Source: a virus (taxonomy: Duplodnaviria; Heunggongvirae; Uroviricota; Caudoviricetes). From it: a stretch of 36,250 nucleotides of DNA. The notes under the pieces were generated by a model. It was not told where the DNA came from, did not search any database, and was given only the letters and a program-made list of their open reading frames with translations. Positions 319 to 36,250 of this stretch are shown here, piece after piece. Location: the IMG/VR virus record IMGVR_UViG_2870490042_000002, one strand, 5' to 3'. The stretch's first letter is position 1. Each line of letters starts with the position of its first letter. The translations under genes and the position numbers were made by a program.

Positions 319-470
319 GAATATTTTTTGGTAAGCGTCAAATATGCGCGTTCTGGCTGTGCGTAGCCGGAACCTGTGGGAGCACGATGCCGATAAGTGA
401 AAGGCATCGTGCTATGAAGGAGGATTCTATCGATGTGGTCAATGGAAGACGGTTACCAGAGATAGGGCTT

Positions 471-499
471 ATGCATAAAAAAATAAGCCCGTGTAAGGG
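471..499. repeat. attL core: direct repeat of the cyaR 3' end (AAAAAATAAGCCCGTGTAAGGG)
   Basis: 22-bp exact repeat at 478-499 and 34718-34739, preceded by ATGCA in both copies. Matches the P2 att core as recalled. Two TGTGGACA arm-type repeats lie at 593-610 on the int side. Confidence 0.6.
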
Positions 500-583
500 C
501 GTTTATATACCCTTACAACAGGGGCTTTCAGCGGTGCAATGCGGGTTTGCGCGGCACGCAAGACCACTGAAAGCCATAATAAA

Positions 584-3662: not shown

Positions 3663-5943
3663 GACTCGGGGGCGTATTGCCCCCTCGCTAGCCCTGCCAA
3701 TATCTAAGCGCACCGGCGATACTTTCGTTGGTGCTTATCCCTGGAATGCTCCCCGCGCTGCCATTGGCCGTGACAGACCCCTTACACGTGCCGAATTCCG
3801 TCAGGTGCAAGGTGTTTTATACCGGATTGACCGCCTGCCTTTCTTTCTTAAGACGTTGTTTACTTCCCGTTATAACTTCATTCGTCGCACAAAGAGCCCG
3901 CTCGGGGCGCTCTATTTCCTGAAAAACACCTTTGAGCGGAAGCTGTTGCCGCGTCTTGAGCGCGTTAACGAGCTGTGCGGGATGAATGAATCTGCGTCGA
4001 TTGGTTTCTTGTCTGAGCGTGACGAATATGCGCGCTTGCCTGATATGAATGACAAAGAGCTGAAAAAATTTGCGGCCAGAATTGCCGCGCAGCTCTGGCG
4101 TAAATACGAGGAACTCAGCGACGAATGGGCTGAGGCATTCGGCGGTAAAGAGACCCTTTTCACCGATGAGGCGCAGGTGCACATATATGGTCAGGTGGCT
4201 GGTGTTGCACGCGCGTTCAACTTAACCCCGCTCTACTGGAAAAAATACCGTAAGGGTCAGATAACGATCCGCATGGCGTTTTCCGCTATTTCCCGTCTGA
4301 TAAAAGATGATTGGTGGGTTAACCAGCTCAAGGCGCAGCGTATGCGCTGGCGCGAGGCGCTGCTTATCGCTGCCGGTGAAGTCAACAAAGACCGTTCACC
4401 TTACGCCAGCAAAATGGCGATCCGCGAGGTTCACTCGCGCCGGCTGGCTAATCTCGAATACCTGAAATCCTGTGAGCTGGAAAACAAAGTTACCGGCGAA
4501 CGTATCGACCTCATCAGTAAAGTCATGGGGAGTATTTCAAACCCTGAAATACGCCGTATGGAGCTGATGAACACCATTGCCGGAATTGAACGCTATGCGG
4601 CCAGCGTTGGTGATGTGGGAATGTTTATCACGCTGACCACGCCGTCGAAGTATCACCCGACCCGACAGGTCGGCAAAGGTGACAGCAAAACGGTGCAGCT
4701 CAATCACGGCTGGAACGAAACCGCATTCACCCCTAAAAACGGCCAGCGCTATCTGTGCCGAATCTGGAGCCTGATGCGTACCGCTTTCAAAGATAACGAT
4801 TTGGAAGTGTATGGGATGCGCGTTGTCGAGCCGCACCACGACGGCACGCCACACTGGCATATGATGCTTTTTTGCAAACTCAGTCAGCGTAAAGCTATCA
4901 ACGAAATTATGCGTCGTTATGCCCTCAAAGAGGACGGACGCGAAAAGGGCGCGGCAAAACAGCGCTTTGAGTCGCGTCACCTTAATCAGGGGGGCGCGGC
5001 GGGTTATATCGCCAAATACATTGCCAAAAATATCGACGGCTACGCGCTTGACGGTCAGCTCGATCACGATACCGGCAAATCTCTGAAAGATACGGCCGCA
5101 GCCGTAACCGCATGGGCGTCTACATGGCGTATCCCTCAGTTTAAACCGATTGGCCTCCCGACAATGGGCGCTTACCGCGAACTGCGTAAGCTGCCGCGCG
5201 GGGTGAGTATCGCCAGCGAGTTTGACGACCGTGTCGAGGCCGTCCGGGCTGCTGCAGATGAGGGGGAATTTGACCTGTACATCAGCGCGCAGGGTGGGGC
5301 AAACATGCAGCGTGATGCTCAGGCGGTCAGGGTCGCCCGTAAGGTGACGGATGAGGTAAACGAATACGAGGAGGATATCGAGAAAGTGGTCGGTATTTAT
5401 GCCCCTCATCTTGGGGTGAGCCGCGTACATGTAACCCGTACAGCGGAATGGCGCATAGTTCCAAAGGTTTTGGCCGTTGAGCCTTTGACCTTAAAAAGCG
5501 GCTTTGCCGCGCCTCGGAGTCCTGTCAATAACTGTGGAAAGCTTGCCGACGGTGGCGATCCAGTTATGACACCTACACCGTCTGAGCAAGCCGCAGCGGT
5601 GTTAAATTTGATTGAGGCCGGGGTTATCGGCTGGAATGAGCCAGACGTCATGAAGGTTCTTAACGGCGCGTTAAAAGCTGGCGCACCTCGCAATAATCGC
5701 CAGCAAAGAAGCAATGCGCCACTCAAAACGAGCGAGCAAGCTCCATCAGCCAGGATGACAAAACCAGAAAGGGATCGCGTGGCGAAAATTCGTTTCGATT
5801 TGGCTCAGGAGGGCATTACCCCGGAACGGTGGGCGCTCGAAGCGCTGGCGCGTGGGGCAACGGTGATTTATGGCGATAAAAAAATCAAATACGCGGCTGC
5901 TGATGAGTGGCCGGGATTCTCAATTCAAGAGGAGCAGAATTAA
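3652..5943 (+). CDS. A: Rolling-circle replication initiator endonuclease, P2 gpA-like (763 aa)
   Basis: ORF 3571..5943 trimmed to MAVETRGR (P2 A starts MAVKASGR as recalled). Long colinear blocks include EPHHDGTPHWHMM and GGAAGYIAKYIAKNIDGY. Confidence 0.9.
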   Translation: MAVETRGRIAPSLALPISKRTGDTFVGAYPWNAPRAAIGRDRPLTRAEFRQVQGVLYRIDRLPFFLKTLFTSRYNFIRRTKSPLGALYFLKNTFERKLLPRLERVNELCGMNESASIGFLSERDEYARLPDMNDKELKKFAARIAAQLWRKYEELSDEWAEAFGGKETLFTDEAQVHIYGQVAGVARAFNLTPLYWKKYRKGQITIRMAFSAISRLIKDDWWVNQLKAQRMRWREALLIAAGEVNKDRSPYASKMAIREVHSRRLANLEYLKSCELENKVTGERIDLISKVMGSISNPEIRRMELMNTIAGIERYAASVGDVGMFITLTTPSKYHPTRQVGKGDSKTVQLNHGWNETAFTPKNGQRYLCRIWSLMRTAFKDNDLEVYGMRVVEPHHDGTPHWHMMLFCKLSQRKAINEIMRRYALKEDGREKGAAKQRFESRHLNQGGAAGYIAKYIAKNIDGYALDGQLDHDTGKSLKDTAAAVTAWASTWRIPQFKPIGLPTMGAYRELRKLPRGVSIASEFDDRVEAVRAAADEGEFDLYISAQGGANMQRDAQAVRVARKVTDEVNEYEEDIEKVVGIYAPHLGVSRVHVTRTAEWRIVPKVLAVEPLTLKSGFAAPRSPVNNCGKLADGGDPVMTPTPSEQAAAVLNLIEAGVIGWNEPDVMKVLNGALKAGAPRNNRQQRSNAPLKTSEQAPSARMTKPERDRVAKIRFDLAQEGITPERWALEALARGATVIYGDKKIKYAAADEWPGFSIQEEQN

Positions 5944-6642: not shown

Positions 6643-6924
6643 CAAACGCCGCCGGTGCTGAAACTTGTTTTCAGTGCCAGCGGTGTTGAGCAACGAGCCC
6701 CGCGAGACGTTAGCCTGCACCGTAGAGACCACCCCCAACCGGCACGATTAAAGTCGGTTTTATTATGCAATTTTCCCACAATTTCCCGGTTTTTTAGCCG
6801 TGCATGCAACAGGTGCATTTTTTTGCATGCGTTGGGGATGCCTGTTCTGGCCGCGCGCCGCCAGAGCAGGCGCGGATCCAGAGTGGTCATGCAACTGCAT
6901 TAAAAACGACCCATAAAGCGGGCA

Positions 6925-31942: not shown

Positions 31943-32464
31943 ATGTCAAAGCCAAAATACCCTTTTGAAAAGCGCCTTGAAGTCGTGAATCACTACTTCA
32001 CAACTGATGATGGTTACAGGATCATCTCGGCACGTTTTGGTGTCCCCCGAACCCAGGTCAGGACATGGGTTGCCCTCTATGAAAAACATGGAGAAAAAGG
32101 TTTAATTCCCAAACCTAAAGGCGTTAGTGCTGATCCAGAGTTGCGTATTAAGGTCGTGAAAGCTGTGATCGAGCAGCACATGTCCCTTAATCAGGCTGCT
32201 GCTCACTTTATGCTTGCTGGTAGTGGTTCTGTAGCCAGGTGGCTGAAGGTCTATGAAGAGCGCGGAGAAGCTGGTTTACGCGCGCTCAAGATTGGCACCA
32301 AAAGAAACATTGCAATATCAGTTGATCCAGAAAAAGCGGCATCAGCATTGGAGCTGTCAAAAGACCGACGCATTGAGGATCTTGAAAGGCAAGTTCGATT
32401 TCTTGAAACGCGGCTTATGTATCTAAAAAAGCTGAAAGCCTTAGCTCATCCCACGAAAAAGTGA
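31943..32464 (+). CDS. insJ: IS150 OrfA (InsJ, 173 aa, HTH)
   Basis: MSKPKYPFEKRLEVVNHYFTTDDGYRIISARFGVPRTQVRTWV. IS3-family OrfA with C-terminal leucine zipper. Confidence 0.85.
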   Translation: MSKPKYPFEKRLEVVNHYFTTDDGYRIISARFGVPRTQVRTWVALYEKHGEKGLIPKPKGVSADPELRIKVVKAVIEQHMSLNQAAAHFMLAGSGSVARWLKVYEERGEAGLRALKIGTKRNIAISVDPEKAASALELSKDRRIEDLERQVRFLETRLMYLKKLKALAHPTKK

Positions 32465-33312
32465 AAGTACTCAACGAGCTAAGGCAGTTTTATCCTCTTG
32501 ATGAGCTTCTCAGGGCTGCGGAGATACCGCGCAGTACGTTTTATTATCATCTAAAGGCTCTCAGCAAGCCTGACAAGTATGCGGACGTTAAAAAGCGTAT
32601 TAGTGAGATTTATCACGAGAATAGAGGCCGATACGGATACCGTAGGGTAACGCTGTCTCTTCATCGAGAAGGGAAACAGATTAACCATAAAGCTGTTCAG
32701 CGCCTGATGGGAACCCTCTCACTTAAAGCAGCGATTAAGGTCAAGCGATACCGCTCTTACAGAGGAGAGGTAGGGCAAACCGCCCCTAATGTTCTCCAAA
32801 GAGATTTCAAGGCTACGCGGCCAAACGAGAAGTGGGTTACCGATGTTACTGAATTTGCAGTCAATGGGCGCAAGCTGTATTTGTCTCCAGTAATAGATCT
32901 CTTCAACAACGAAGTTATTTCTTACAGCCTTTCGGAAAGACCAGTGATGAACATGGTTGAGAATATGCTCGATCAGGCATTCAAAAAGCTTAATCCTCAC
33001 GAGCATCCTGTTCTGCACTCTGACCAGGGATGGCAGTATCGTATGAGAAGATATCAAAATATCCTTAAAGAACATGGTATTAAACAAAGCATGTCCAGAA
33101 AAGGCAATTGTCTGGATAATGCTGTGGTGGAGTGTTTCTTTGGAACCTTAAAGTCGGAGTGTTTTTATCTTGATGAGTTCAGTAATATAAGCGAACTGAA
33201 GGATGCTGTTACGGAATATATTGAATACTACAACAGCAGAAGAATTAGCCTGAAATTAAAAGGTCTGACTCCAATTGAATATCGGAATCAGACCTATATG
33301 CCTCGTGTTTAA
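32461..33312 (+). CDS. insK: IS150 OrfB (InsK, DDE transposase catalytic domain)
   Basis: 283-aa ORF in the -1 frame relative to OrfA, GTG start at 32461. IS3-family DDE transposase core. Confidence 0.85.
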
Positions 33313-33627: not shown

Positions 33628-34479
33628 TTGAACAATATCCCCATATCTACTCAATGGACTTTAGACGCTACGGGTGAAGTTGGACGCTCATCAGTAAATT
33701 CTGTTTATATGATTATATGTCCTGCGACCGGCTCGAAAGGATCTGGTTTTTTAATAGATAATGGGTTAATAGTAACGAACGAGCATGTTATCACTGGATG
33801 CTCTACAAATCAGATTTTCGCAATTTCAGCTTATGGACAGAAGATTCCAATTTCTCAAAAATGGATAGATTCTGATCGCGATTTAGCTGTGCTGAGACCT
33901 GCCATTACCCAGACTGGTGGGCTAAGTATTGTTAAGGATAATGATCTTAAAGTTGGTGAATCAGTAACAACTTGGGGATACCCATTAGGATACAACGGTC
34001 CTGCACCGTTACTATCCGTTGGTTATCTAGCAGGATTTAACTCATACCAAACCGCCAAGGGACAAAAAAAACATCTAGTGGTAAATGGGGCATTTAACTC
34101 AGGAAATTCTGGTGGAGCTCTTTTAAAAGCTTCAGATAATAAAGTAATAGGTATTGTAGTGAGTAAGCATGCTCCTATCAGTCAATACCATCAATCAGCT
34201 ATTGAAGCTTTGTCTGAAAATATGAGTGGCGTCACCTATACCGCTACTAATGACGCTGGAGAAACTAAAAGTTTTGTAGAATCTCAAATTGTAGCAGAAT
34301 TATTGATTCATATGAGAAGTCTAACTCAAGTTATGATTGGAGAAGCAATTGCAGCAGAGGAATTACTTTCGATGCTTAGCGAAATTGACTTGAGTCCACC
34401 ACAATCTATGTCAAGAAATGCCTTATGTCATTGCGGGAGTGGAAAACGCTTCAAAGAATGTCATGGAAAGATATCCTAG
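33628..34479 (+). CDS. Trypsin-like (S1) serine protease with C-terminal SEC-C zinc-binding motif; cargo gene
   Basis: TTG start with RBS AAGGAG 5 nt upstream. Triad candidates His in VTNEHV, Asp in DLAVL, Ser in GNSGGAL. C-terminal CHCGSGKRFKECHG. No signal peptide. AT-rich. Confidence 0.75.
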   Translation: MNNIPISTQWTLDATGEVGRSSVNSVYMIICPATGSKGSGFLIDNGLIVTNEHVITGCSTNQIFAISAYGQKIPISQKWIDSDRDLAVLRPAITQTGGLSIVKDNDLKVGESVTTWGYPLGYNGPAPLLSVGYLAGFNSYQTAKGQKKHLVVNGAFNSGNSGGALLKASDNKVIGIVVSKHAPISQYHQSAIEALSENMSGVTYTATNDAGETKSFVESQIVAELLIHMRSLTQVMIGEAIAAEELLSMLSEIDLSPPQSMSRNALCHCGSGKRFKECHGKIS

Positions 34480-34628
34480 TAAGTACTTATATCAGTCTGA
34501 TAATGGCTCTTCAAATACAAAAGACTTCACTTACTCTGCCGTCATCTCTGCTCCTCGCTTATTGCAGACGGTCAAAAGCTTACAAGCTGTTGACTAGATG
34601 TGTTCTTACATTGTCAGTTAAAACAAAA

Positions 34629-34651
34629 GCCCCGCAAATGCGGGGCTTTTT
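34629..34651 (+). terminator. Rho-independent terminator after the protease cargo gene
   Basis: GCCCCGC-aaat-GCGGGGC followed by TTTTT. Near-identical to the terminator after ogr that is split by IS150. Confidence 0.55.
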
Positions 34652-34712
34652 GTATCGATGTGGTCAATGTGTGGACATTGATAGAAATAAATCCATTTAT
34701 TTCAGTAATTTA

Positions 34713-34739
34713 CATGCAAAAAATAAGCCCGTGTAAGGG
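34713..34739. repeat. attR core (22-bp direct repeat of attL core plus ATGCA), also the 3' end of cyaR
   Basis: Exact repeat of 478-499. Preceded by TGTGGACA (34668-34675) and TATCGATGTGGTCAATG arm sequence. Confidence 0.6.
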
Positions 34740-34804
34740 AGATTACACAGGCTAAGGAGGTGGTTCCTGGTACAGCTAGCATTTTATGGGTTATGTTTTT
34801 CAGC
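34718..34804 (-). ncRNA. cyaR: CyaR (RyeE) Hfq-dependent sRNA, 87 nt
   Basis: Reverse complement reads GCUGAAAAACAUAACCCAUAAAAUGCUAGCUGUACCAGGAACCACCUCCUUAGCCUGUGUAAUCUCCCUUACACGGGCUUAUUUUUU, matching E. coli CyaR as recalled, with terminator hairpin and U-tail. Confidence 0.75.
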
Positions 34805-34888
34805 GAAACGGATGATAACCTTAATAAATGCAGCTGTATGTGATCGGTTTCTAAGAATTTTCCATCCGGGAAAAATAATCGAAATTAA

Positions 34889-36250
34889 TCACTTACCGTG
34901 TGGGTTACGCGTGGTTTCCCCGGAGAAATTACGCATCAGCAGAGCGTAATTGAGCTCAAGATCCTGCGGGACCGGGAGCCACACAGTATAACCATCGCCT
35001 GGTGCGACCGGCATCGCTTCACCTTTGGCGTTTTCCATGTGCTCAAGGGTAAAGTTAATGTTGCCTTGCGGCGTCATCAGCTCAAGGCTGTCGCCAACGG
35101 AGAATTTATTTTTCACCGCTACCGCCGCGAGGTCCCCCTTGCGCTCACCGGTAAACTCACCAACAAACTGCTGGCGGTCAGAAACTGAATAACCGTATTC
35201 GTAGTTCTGATAATCGTCGTGAGTATGACGACGCAGGAAACCTTCGGTATAGCCACGATGCGCCAGACCTTCCAGAGTTTCCAGCAGGCTGGTATCGAAC
35301 GGTTTGCCCGCAGCGGCGTCATCGATAGCTTTACGGTAAACCTGTGCGGTGCGTGCGCAATAGTAGAAAGATTTAGTACGGCCTTCGATTTTCAGCGAAT
35401 GCACGCCCATTTTGGTCAGGCGTTCTACATGGGCGATGGCGCGCAGATCTTTCGAGTTCATGATGTAAGTGCCGTGCTCATCTTCAAACGCGGTCATATA
35501 CTCGCCCGGACGCTGGGCTTCTTCGATCATAAACACTTTGTCGGTTGGCGCGCCGATACCCAGCGTCGGCTCAACATTTTGCACCGGAATCGGCTCGTAC
35601 TTGTGTACGATGTTGCCAACGTCATCTTCTTTCCCTTCCTGGACGTTGTACTCCCAGCGGCAGGCGTTGGTGCAGGTACCCTGGTTCGGATCGCGCTTGT
35701 TGATATAGCCAGAGAGCAGGCAGCGACCGGAGTAGGCCATGCACAGTGCGCCGTGAACGAAGATCTCGATCTCCATATCCGGCACCTGATTGCGGATCTC
35801 TTCAATCTCTTCCAGCGACAGCTCGCGAGAGAGGATCACGCGGGTCAGGCCCATTTGCTGCCAGAATTTCACCGTCGCCCAGTTTACGGCGTTAGCCTGC
35901 ACCGAGAGGTGGATCGGCATTTCAGGGAAGTGCTCACGCACCAGCATAATCAGCCCTGGATCGGACATAATCAGCGCATCCGGCCCCATTTCCACCACCG
36001 GTTTCAGGTCACGGATAAAGGTTTTCAGCTTGGCGTTGTGCGGTGCAATGTTGACCACGACATAAAACTTTTTCCCCAGCGCGTGGGCTTCATTGATGCC
36101 GAGCTGAAGATTTTCGTGGTTGAATTCGTTGTTGCGCACACGCAGGGAGTAACGCGGCTGGCCCGCATAAACAGCATCTGCGCCATAAGCGAAAGCGTAA
36201 CGCATATTTTTCAGCGTTCCCGCCGGGGAAAGGAGTTCCGGTTTAAACAT
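34889..36250 (-). CDS. yegQ: U32-family peptidase-like protein YegQ (tRNA hydroxylation protein), 453 aa; host gene
   Basis: Full-length ORF ending at the window edge; MFKPELLSPAGTLKNMRYAFAYGADAVYAGQPRYSLRVRNNEF. Sequence and position next to cyaR match E. coli yegQ as recalled. Confidence 0.85.
   Translation of the reverse strand: MFKPELLSPAGTLKNMRYAFAYGADAVYAGQPRYSLRVRNNEFNHENLQLGINEAHALGKKFYVVVNIAPHNAKLKTFIRDLKPVVEMGPDALIMSDPGLIMLVREHFPEMPIHLSVQANAVNWATVKFWQQMGLTRVILSRELSLEEIEEIRNQVPDMEIEIFVHGALCMAYSGRCLLSGYINKRDPNQGTCTNACRWEYNVQEGKEDDVGNIVHKYEPIPVQNVEPTLGIGAPTDKVFMIEEAQRPGEYMTAFEDEHGTYIMNSKDLRAIAHVERLTKMGVHSLKIEGRTKSFYYCARTAQVYRKAIDDAAAGKPFDTSLLETLEGLAHRGYTEGFLRRHTHDDYQNYEYGYSVSDRQQFVGEFTGERKGDLAAVAVKNKFSVGDSLELMTPQGNINFTLEHMENAKGEAMPVAPGDGYTVWLPVPQDLELNYALLMRNFSGETTRNPHGK

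Follow-up and report, generated by a model that had tools for sequence, protein, structure and literature searches.

A Very Probable Relic of an Ancient P2-Like Prophage Forms the Host-Side Arm of the P2 Attachment Site at cyaR in Escherichia coli

The Locus and Its Present Prophage

The window, by which we mean the whole stretch of 36,250 nt that was analyzed, is bounded on its left by yegR (1-318, + strand), which encodes a predicted lipoprotein of 105 amino acids annotated as YegR in identical genomes, and on its right by the sRNA gene cyaR (34721-34806, - strand; Rfam RF00112, 100.7 bits, full length) and the gene yegQ (- strand, up to the window end). Its first 520 nt are 100% identical to the genome of E. 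coli strain AR_0137. Between yegR and cyaR lies a P2-like prophage of 34.2 kb, inserted at the 3' end of cyaR, where P2-like phages integrate, and flanked by two copies of the att core AAAAAATAAGCCCGTGTAAGGG (478-499 and 34718-34739; repeat family D11) at a spacing of 34,240 nt.

The left junction consists of the attL core (478-504, + strand), of which the first 22 nt are those of the attR core and the last 5 (CGTTT) are phage-derived, and of the P' arm (505-611, + strand), which contains the Int arm-type repeats TGTGGACA at 593-600 and 604-611, overlaps the 3' end of int and corresponds to the features 'Int, P' arm' and Cox binding of the P2 record. The int gene (584-1597, - strand) codes for a tyrosine integrase with the Pfam domains Int_N and Phage_integrase; it is annotated as phage integrase in the matching AR_0137 record, in which genes for a repressor, for cox and for a replication endonuclease come after it.

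The right end of the prophage carries D, ogr, an IS3-family element, a protease gene, a terminator and the P arm. The terminator, an intrinsic-type hairpin with a T run (34627-34651, + strand), stands directly before the live P arm, in the position of the annotated terminator of P2. The live P arm itself (34653-34717, + strand) contains the Int repeats TGTGGTCA (34659-34666) and TGTGGACA (34670-34677), followed by an AT-rich stretch where P2 has its IHF site, and matches the P arms of P2-like phages to 82-84%. It is followed by the attR core (34718-34744, + strand), which is at the same time the 3' half of the cyaR terminator and is the copy kept intact. With int beside attL, a C/cox switch, an A gene, D and ogr near attR, a duplicated core and arm repeats in both P (34659-34677) and P' (593-611), the element has what belongs to an intact P2-like prophage.

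The IS3-family insertion sequence (31943-33312; one ORF with an HTH_28 domain and one with an rve domain) is located between ogr and the right-end cargo gene. The product of this AT-rich cargo gene (33628-34479) is a trypsin-like serine protease bearing a SEC-C motif at its C terminus (Pfam Trypsin_2 and SEC-C), and the slot of the gene relative to the live P arm is that of yegR relative to the arm described in the next section.

Similarity of the Host-Side Arm to the P Arm of P2

A sequence-only reading of the window had pointed to a 17-mer left of both att cores, which at attR belongs to the phage P arm and at attL lies on what should be the B arm of the host. This proved to be correct in both respects. 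The 17-mer, TATCGATGTGGTCAATG, is found exactly twice, both times on the + strand and left of a core, at 428-444 and 34653-34669; the window contains no further match even when up to two mismatches are allowed, and none of 100 dinucleotide shuffles of the window gave two or more matches. In the P2 record (AF063097) the sequence GTCGATGTGGTCAATGTGTGGACGTGAC is labeled as the binding site 'Int, P arm', after which come an IHF site and then the 27-nt core; the 17-mer is identical with the first 17 nt, the first half, of this site.

On the host side the 17-mer (428-444, + strand) contains at 434-441 an intact arm-type repeat, TGTGGTCA, to be compared with the published consensus tgTGGaCa of the arm repeats of P2 Int (PMC3448106). 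It is followed by what appears to be the decayed rest of a P arm (445-477, + strand), with a degraded second Int repeat, GAAGACGG, in the place of TGTGGACG in P2 and of TGTGGAC(A/G) in the phages, and with a shortened counterpart of the IHF site. The comparison with the attP of P2 that the same reading had recommended showed that B arm and P2 P arm are collinear, TCGATGTGGTCAATG-GAAGACGGTTACCAGAGATA aligning with TCGATGTGGTCAATGTGTGGAC-GTGACCAGAAATA, and that the same is true of the B arm and the P arm of a P2 remnant in E. coli K-12. The likeness runs on in register past the 17-mer (GACG..ACCAGA.ATA), and the score of the part downstream of the 17-mer alone was reached by 38-45 of 5,000 shuffles. 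For the whole 75-nt B arm of strain Santai, which has no prophage at this site, z was 8.9 against P2, and for the longer B arm of strain N96 it was 9.3-9.5; in a small-database blastn search the Santai arm matched the P2 P arm with 80% identity over 41 nt (E = 0.004). Arm motif and core are 47 nt apart in the B arms of the window, Santai and K-12, 58 nt in the N96 allele and 62 nt in P2, in attR of the window and in the K-12 remnant.

With about 70% identity in the rest of the arm, uniform decay would predict a perfect run somewhat shorter than 17 nt. The run is best explained by strong constraint on the phage side (TCGATGTGGTCAATG is invariant among the P arms compared), so that only decay on the host side counts, together with chance; the length of the run leaves room for constraint or chance.

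Upstream of the B arm, between it and yegR, there is a perfect 11-bp hairpin, AGCACGATGCC...GGCATCGTGCT (381-413, + strand), roughly where P2-like phages have the terminator preceding their P arm. It has a minimum free energy of -26.1 kcal/mol (z = -5.8), none of 200 shuffles folded equally well, and it is kept in all E. coli alleles read (Santai, K-12, N96 and FDAARGOS_1077). The hairpin is devoid of a T tract on either strand, and a simple terminator scan does not call it a terminator.

The spacer between yegR and the hairpin (319-380; 4319-4385 in the Santai locus, L001, and 4462-4531 in the N96 locus, L135) shows a borderline likeness of about 34 in 49 nt (small-database blastn, E = 0.006-0.03) to positions 6805-6875 of the window, intergenic DNA where the early region of the prophage ends. 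If the likeness is real, this part of the islet may stem from a cargo site of the early region rather than from the slot between ogr and attP.

The Interval Between yegS and cyaR in Relatives

A genome collection was scanned with the invariant blocks of cyaR as anchor, which yielded at least 120 loci from many genera of the Enterobacterales. In about 70 of the 120 loci listed, among them that of Escherichia sp. E1V33, the start codon of yegS is only 90-130 nt away from the cyaR anchor. E. coli has retained this ancestral spacer beside yegS (65/72 identity to E1V33), which is then followed by about 800 extra nt before the core, the insert beginning exactly where the ancestor has its core. The ancestral yegS spacer downstream of cyaR contains no arm-like sequence in the many genera compared.

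The islet thus inserted is absent from the locus in relatives and atypical in base composition, both of which are marks of a prophage remnant: its GC content is 39.1% and that of yegR 36.5%, as compared with 49.8% for yegS and 54.2% for yegQ. Its sole gene is yegR; recognizable phage genes are absent from it, and there are no matches to D, ogr or Int (L065). Since E. fergusonii, E. marmotae and E. ruysiae are missing among the loci listed and the locus of E. albertii (L110) is uninformative, its yegS lying beyond the retrieved stretch, the insertion can be dated only roughly within Escherichia.

The Left Boundary of the Insert and the N96-Type Allele

Extending the view leftward from the window, another check proposed by the sequence-only reading, revealed a fossil attL between yegS and yegR; the D and ogr fragments that had been considered there are absent from the islet. 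The fossil core, TAAAAGTCAGTTCAAGTATGGAGGATT, is situated exactly at the left boundary of the insert and agrees with the att core in 17 of 27 positions without a gap; of the 3,946 27-mers on both strands of the surrounding 2 kb only three reach 16, the true core being among them. In Santai it occupies positions 3683-3709 of L001, the live core being at 4478-4504 (window 478-504). In the strain of the window it lies at 5681-5709 of the retrieved locus (L003), about 292-320 nt left of base 1, and was therefore invisible from the window. The islet is hence bounded by two att cores in direct orientation, as is a prophage remnant, although the fossil core is unannotated.

In the common allele of E. 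coli only a stub of the P' arm follows the fossil core. When the junction was anchored on the core and P' arm of P2, it scored 15 versus 3.3 ± 1.8 for shuffles, of which 1 in 5,000 reached this score. By unanchored local alignment with P2 the stub is marginal (58 of 1,000 shuffles reach its score), and against the window's own P' arm the common allele does poorly (831 of 1,000 shuffles unanchored, 766 of 5,000 anchored). Judged by the P' arm, canonical P2 thus appears to be a closer relative of the ancient phage than the prophage of the window. A null distribution of genomic 70-mers (67/5,000) is inflated, since the pool includes real cores and fossils, and is not used as a p-value.

Much more of the left end is preserved in an allele found in strain N96 and 22 other genomes (23 in all), which is rarer than the common allele but orthologous to it, with 811/897 identity and the same derived changes in the fossil core. 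N96 exceeds the common allele by 60 + 10 nt in the P' stub, by 171 nt behind yegR and by 12 nt in the P arm. Its P' arm is complete, with the region of the Cox sites and with the two Int arm repeats (TACTGTGGAttCaGcGTGG), and is identical to that of P2 in 106 of 152 positions (z = 28); the bearing of this strong P' evidence on the common allele depends on the two alleles being orthologous. In searches restricted to the att region of P2 and the prophage of the window, blastn aligned the left end of N96 with P2 at 74% identity over 132 nt (E = 7e-19), and the nhmmer match (E = 6e-14) ran into the 3' end of int. At the other end the B arm of N96, which is nearly full length, matches the P arm of P2 in 62 of 96 positions (z = 9.5), the P arm reaching E = 0.004-0.006 in the small-database search. 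Phage-homologous DNA is therefore arranged in N96 as it is in a prophage, in the order attL (core, P' arm, 3' end of int) to attR. A database-wide BLAST search of the whole N96 islet against phages did not recover the similarity to P2 at E ≤ 0.01; because the fossil likeness is too weak for searches of that size, its significance was judged from targeted comparisons, anchored and set against shuffles, within a small and defined search space.

The 171-nt segment of N96 (L135 4304-4474) is AT-rich, lies directly downstream of yegR and is absent from the window, Santai and K-12. Some other E. coli genomes match in two pieces across about 170 extra nt, which may be this segment.

Proposed History of the Locus

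We therefore propose that the stretch of about 800 nt between yegS and cyaR, composed of an AT-rich spacer, yegR, the hairpin and the B arm, is very probably the relic of an ancient P2-like prophage. Its right end is homologous to the P arm and its left end to core and P' arm of P2 attP (AF063097), which consists of a P arm with Int and IHF sites, the 27-nt core and a P' arm with Cox and Int sites, and they have the right order and orientation for attL to attR. The relic differs from P2 attP in being only about 70-74% identical, in its internal deletions and in its wrong spacing, and in the common allele one of four arm repeats is intact.

In this history an ancestor of E. coli would have acquired an ancient P2-like phage, inserted by its Int at the 3' end of cyaR with duplication of the core. 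Deletions, whose order and number we infer, would then have stripped away almost all DNA from the 3' end of int to the right-end region, leaving behind a decaying attL (core and P' arm), yegR, the hairpin and a P arm beside the second core. The attL core, presumably under no selection, would have decayed; the attR core, being part of the cyaR terminator, would have stayed intact and so have remained a perfect attB. Into this surviving core the present prophage of 34.2 kb would later have entered site-specifically, with its live P arm at attR and with the fossil arm as B arm of attL. The 17-mer would be an unchanged survivor of the Int site of the old P arm; its agreement with the new prophage would follow from the near-invariance of the segment among the P arms examined.

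Few phage attachment sites have been studied as well as that of P2 at the 3' end of cyaR, whose B arm is itself very probably of phage origin. Three integrations are stacked at this one sRNA gene: the ancient relic, a younger remnant in K-12 and the live prophage of the window. For the prediction of att sites it follows that a host-side repeat extending beyond the core can stem from an earlier occupant of the site. The relic is a further example of a well-known feature, the decayed prophage remnant; it is mechanistically ordinary and reveals no new mechanism.

The Fossil Arm in Present-Day E. coli

Most likely the fossil arm is inert. A functional P arm has two direct Int repeats, an IHF site and a spacing of 62 nt to the core; in the B arm TGTGGTCA is intact, the second repeat is reduced to GAAGACGG, the counterpart of the IHF site is degraded and partly deleted, and the arm motif stands 15 nt too close to the core. 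In the fossil P' arm, moreover, decay of the Int repeats was evidently tolerated, which argues in the same direction.

It is nevertheless conceivable, although we consider it unlikely, that the arm is of fossil origin and that its surviving repeat, a predicted Int binding site, still functions, so that attB and attL would be partly arm-bearing, which would add to the strong preference shown for the site or change how efficiently excision occurs. The repeat TGTGGTCA fits the published consensus, the exact run of 15-17 nt exceeds those of the fossil P' arm, where identical stretches reach about 10 nt, and the 17-mer together with GAAGACGG is invariant in the four divergent E. coli alleles read, in which positions on either side vary, four alleles having no statistical power. 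These points are outweighed by the loss of one of the two direct repeats, by the degraded IHF counterpart, by the 47 nt instead of 62 nt to the core and by the decay or deletion of the Int repeats in the fossil P' arm, from which it follows that Int sites were not generally preserved at this locus. That a repeat 47 nt from the core might still recruit the N-terminal domain of P2-type integrases, making attB a hybrid 'with an arm', is accordingly a doubtful proposition. Were it true, the scar left by an earlier phage would bias later P2-like phages to the site, or would alter the stability of lysogens via an attP-like attL.

Distribution in E. coli and Entry of the Present Prophage

Positions 1-499 of the window are present in 5,417 of 5,426 complete E. 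coli genomes (about 99.8%), the site being uninterrupted in at most 4,203 of the 5,426, an upper bound since very short remnants merge into one match. In Santai the site is empty: yegS, yegR, cyaR and yegQ follow each other without a phage gene, the 17-mer is in the same place, and there is a single uninterrupted core, 28 nt of it identical to P2 attP. E. coli C, also with an empty site, has the same spacer between yegS and yegR. The relic is thus ancient and species-wide, neither strain-specific nor recent, and being carried by 5,417 of 5,426 genomes it is the B arm for every present-day P2-like phage that uses the site. The suggestion of the sequence-only reading that the site already contained a decayed P2-like right end is borne out; that such a remnant would be a peculiarity of this strain, or young, is not, empty sites carrying it as well.

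The same reading had named an observation that would speak against a relic, namely the left flank in prophage-free strains with no phage-like sequence nearby. The flank is indeed there, but nearby is the fossil attL. As this is unannotated, annotation alone would wrongly have led to abandoning the idea of a relic. The occurrence of a sequence in prophage-free strains is hence not proof of its host origin, a caution that applies to annotation in general.

When positions 1-477 of the window are joined to 34718-35300, the empty site of Santai is reproduced with 0 mismatches in 1,060 nt, from which we conclude that the present prophage entered by ordinary site-specific recombination. The sequence-only reading had also considered entry by recombination with a resident remnant; in this version homologous recombination with a P2 remnant peculiar to the strain would have brought in the prophage or its right end. 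Remnants of the K-12 type (D', ogrK, P arm) do exist at the site in other strains and could have supplied the homology; this route is nonetheless very unlikely and the claim has to be given up, because the joined flanks are those of an empty site and because attL has the order core, P' arm, int that results from Int-mediated integration. B arm and core of the window lead directly into P' arm and int, D' or ogr of the K-12 type not being interposed between B arm and cyaR; the left flank is species-wide, and the P arm of the window differs from that of the K-12 remnant and carries its own cargo.

Still less credible is the reverse direction, in which P2-like phages would have acquired E. coli DNA from downstream of cyaR, perhaps through aberrant excision. 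It is true that phages with RNA genes as their targets bring along a copy of the 3' end of the gene, and here the core is common to phage and cyaR. The homology must yet have run from phage to host, since the ancestral DNA downstream of cyaR is in many genera the yegS spacer without arms, whereas the insert has a P' arm and the end of int on one side, which cannot be derived from the host, and a P arm on the other, and since the arms hold binding sites for the phage's own proteins, the P arm with its Int and IHF sites being common to P2-like phages of Yersinia, Klebsiella and Enterobacter. A chance match of the 17-mer in unrelated host DNA, as can happen with a single short repeat, has a negligible probability in view of the 0 of 100 shuffles with two copies and the collinear continuation of the likeness (z about 9), and is ruled out by the matching fossil attL at the other end of the insert.

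yegR

The relic bears on the origin of yegR, an uncharacterised gene that is treated as part of the core genome of E. coli. It lies between the fossil attL and the fossil P arm. Among the 120 Enterobacterales cyaR loci listed, YegR is found only in the locus of the E. coli type, and the protein family is almost confined to E. coli and Shigella. From position, composition and distribution we think it rather probable that yegR was cargo of the ancient P2-like prophage and is now fixed in E. coli; alternatively, it could have entered the relic later. Of the view that yegR is old cargo there stand its place inside the relic, its AT-richness and its absence from the locus in other Enterobacterales, whereas the status of cargo is what these properties suggest. 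A gene regarded as core genome would thus probably have come with a prophage.

Rare homologues with 46-69% identity occur in unrelated contexts: in Enterobacter on an island rich in IS elements, in one lineage next to mug/rpoD and in another next to a bestrophin-like gene. None of the contexts examined is a P2-like prophage or adjoins cyaR; they neither prove nor disprove an origin as cargo. A tblastn search of phage records with YegR gave no copy in an intact phage, the only matches being ON470606 and AY639599, both with host flank.

These two records, ON470606.1 (vB_EcoM-720R8) and AY639599.1 (Phage TP), include the host flank with yegR, so that YegR shows up as a 'phage' protein; they are a trap for annotation transfer.

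In strain FDAARGOS_1077 (L136 3450-3520) yegR is internally deleted, its first codons being fused to the sequence just before the hairpin, while the fossil attL, the hairpin, the 17-mer and the core are kept. The gene is therefore dispensable in at least one strain. A knockout of yegR showed no phenotype in glucose-limited chemostats (PMC3708739).

The K-12 Remnant and Other Occupants of the cyaR Site

In E. coli K-12 (L002 4478-5133) the same B arm is followed by a truncated attL core (...CCCGTGTA) fused directly to a D' fragment, and this by ogrK, a terminator, an intact P arm (16/17 of the 17-mer) and the live core. This cryptic P2 remnant (yegZ/D' fragment, ogrK, attR) was reportedly described by Barreiro and Haggard-Ljungquist in 1992 (J Bacteriol 174:4086; cited in PMC3091744), whose work reportedly also established that P2-like phages use the site at the end of cyaR. 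In the literature searched, neither the B arm nor yegR was described as a P2 relic, but Barreiro and Haggard-Ljungquist (1992) may note some similarity of the arms. The K-12 remnant has in common with the yegR relic the site at the 3' end of cyaR, the type of phage and the decay by deletion from or near attL that spared the right end and the attR core. It differs in being younger and limited to certain strains, with recognizable phage genes and an intact P arm at a spacing of 62 nt, whereas the yegR relic is older, is present in about 99.8% of E. coli and is without phage genes; the younger remnant represents an earlier stage of the same kind of decay. In K-12 two generations of P2 relics thus stand next to each other, the yegR relic on the left.

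A live or fossil P2-type P arm beside the core was found in 11 of the 120 listed species' loci. Some of these (L094, L107 and L119) have D and ogr, which were not found in the retrieved stretches of Citrobacter (L035), Buttiauxella (L075), Salmonella diarizonae (L103) and E. albertii (L110). Several loci of Enterobacter and related genera contain islets of 0.5-2 kb with a second, partly decayed core (up to 23/27) on the yegS side. In several genera, therefore, successive integrations at cyaR have resulted in cargo-bearing islets bounded by decayed cores, like the islets at other RNA-gene hot spots. In Salmonella the sdsR locus has repeatedly taken up foreign DNA and is still a phage attachment site (PMC3333887). 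Islets of the sdsR type likewise arise from reuse of the 3' end of an sRNA gene as attB; unlike these, the yegR relic itself forms an arm beside a live attB, mimicking the arm of the phages that still integrate there.

In the Enterobacter loci L021 and L058, and also in L018 and L032, the islets have a second core and no P2-type arm next to the live core, which suggests that other kinds of integrating elements may use the same cyaR core.

In E. albertii (L110) cdt genes (Pfam CDtoxinA, and an Exo_endo_phos protein resembling CdtB) are found about 3 kb left of the cyaR core, beside a fossil P2-type P arm (z = 9.7); neither D nor ogr is present within about 3 kb. P2-like phages, fiAA91-ss among them, are carriers of Cdt toxins. 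The E. albertii locus, of which the retrieved stretch does not include the left boundary, seems to be a further P2 relic with cargo at the cyaR site. Its cargo, unlike yegR, codes for a toxin of known function; both loci keep their cargo beside a fossil P arm at cyaR.
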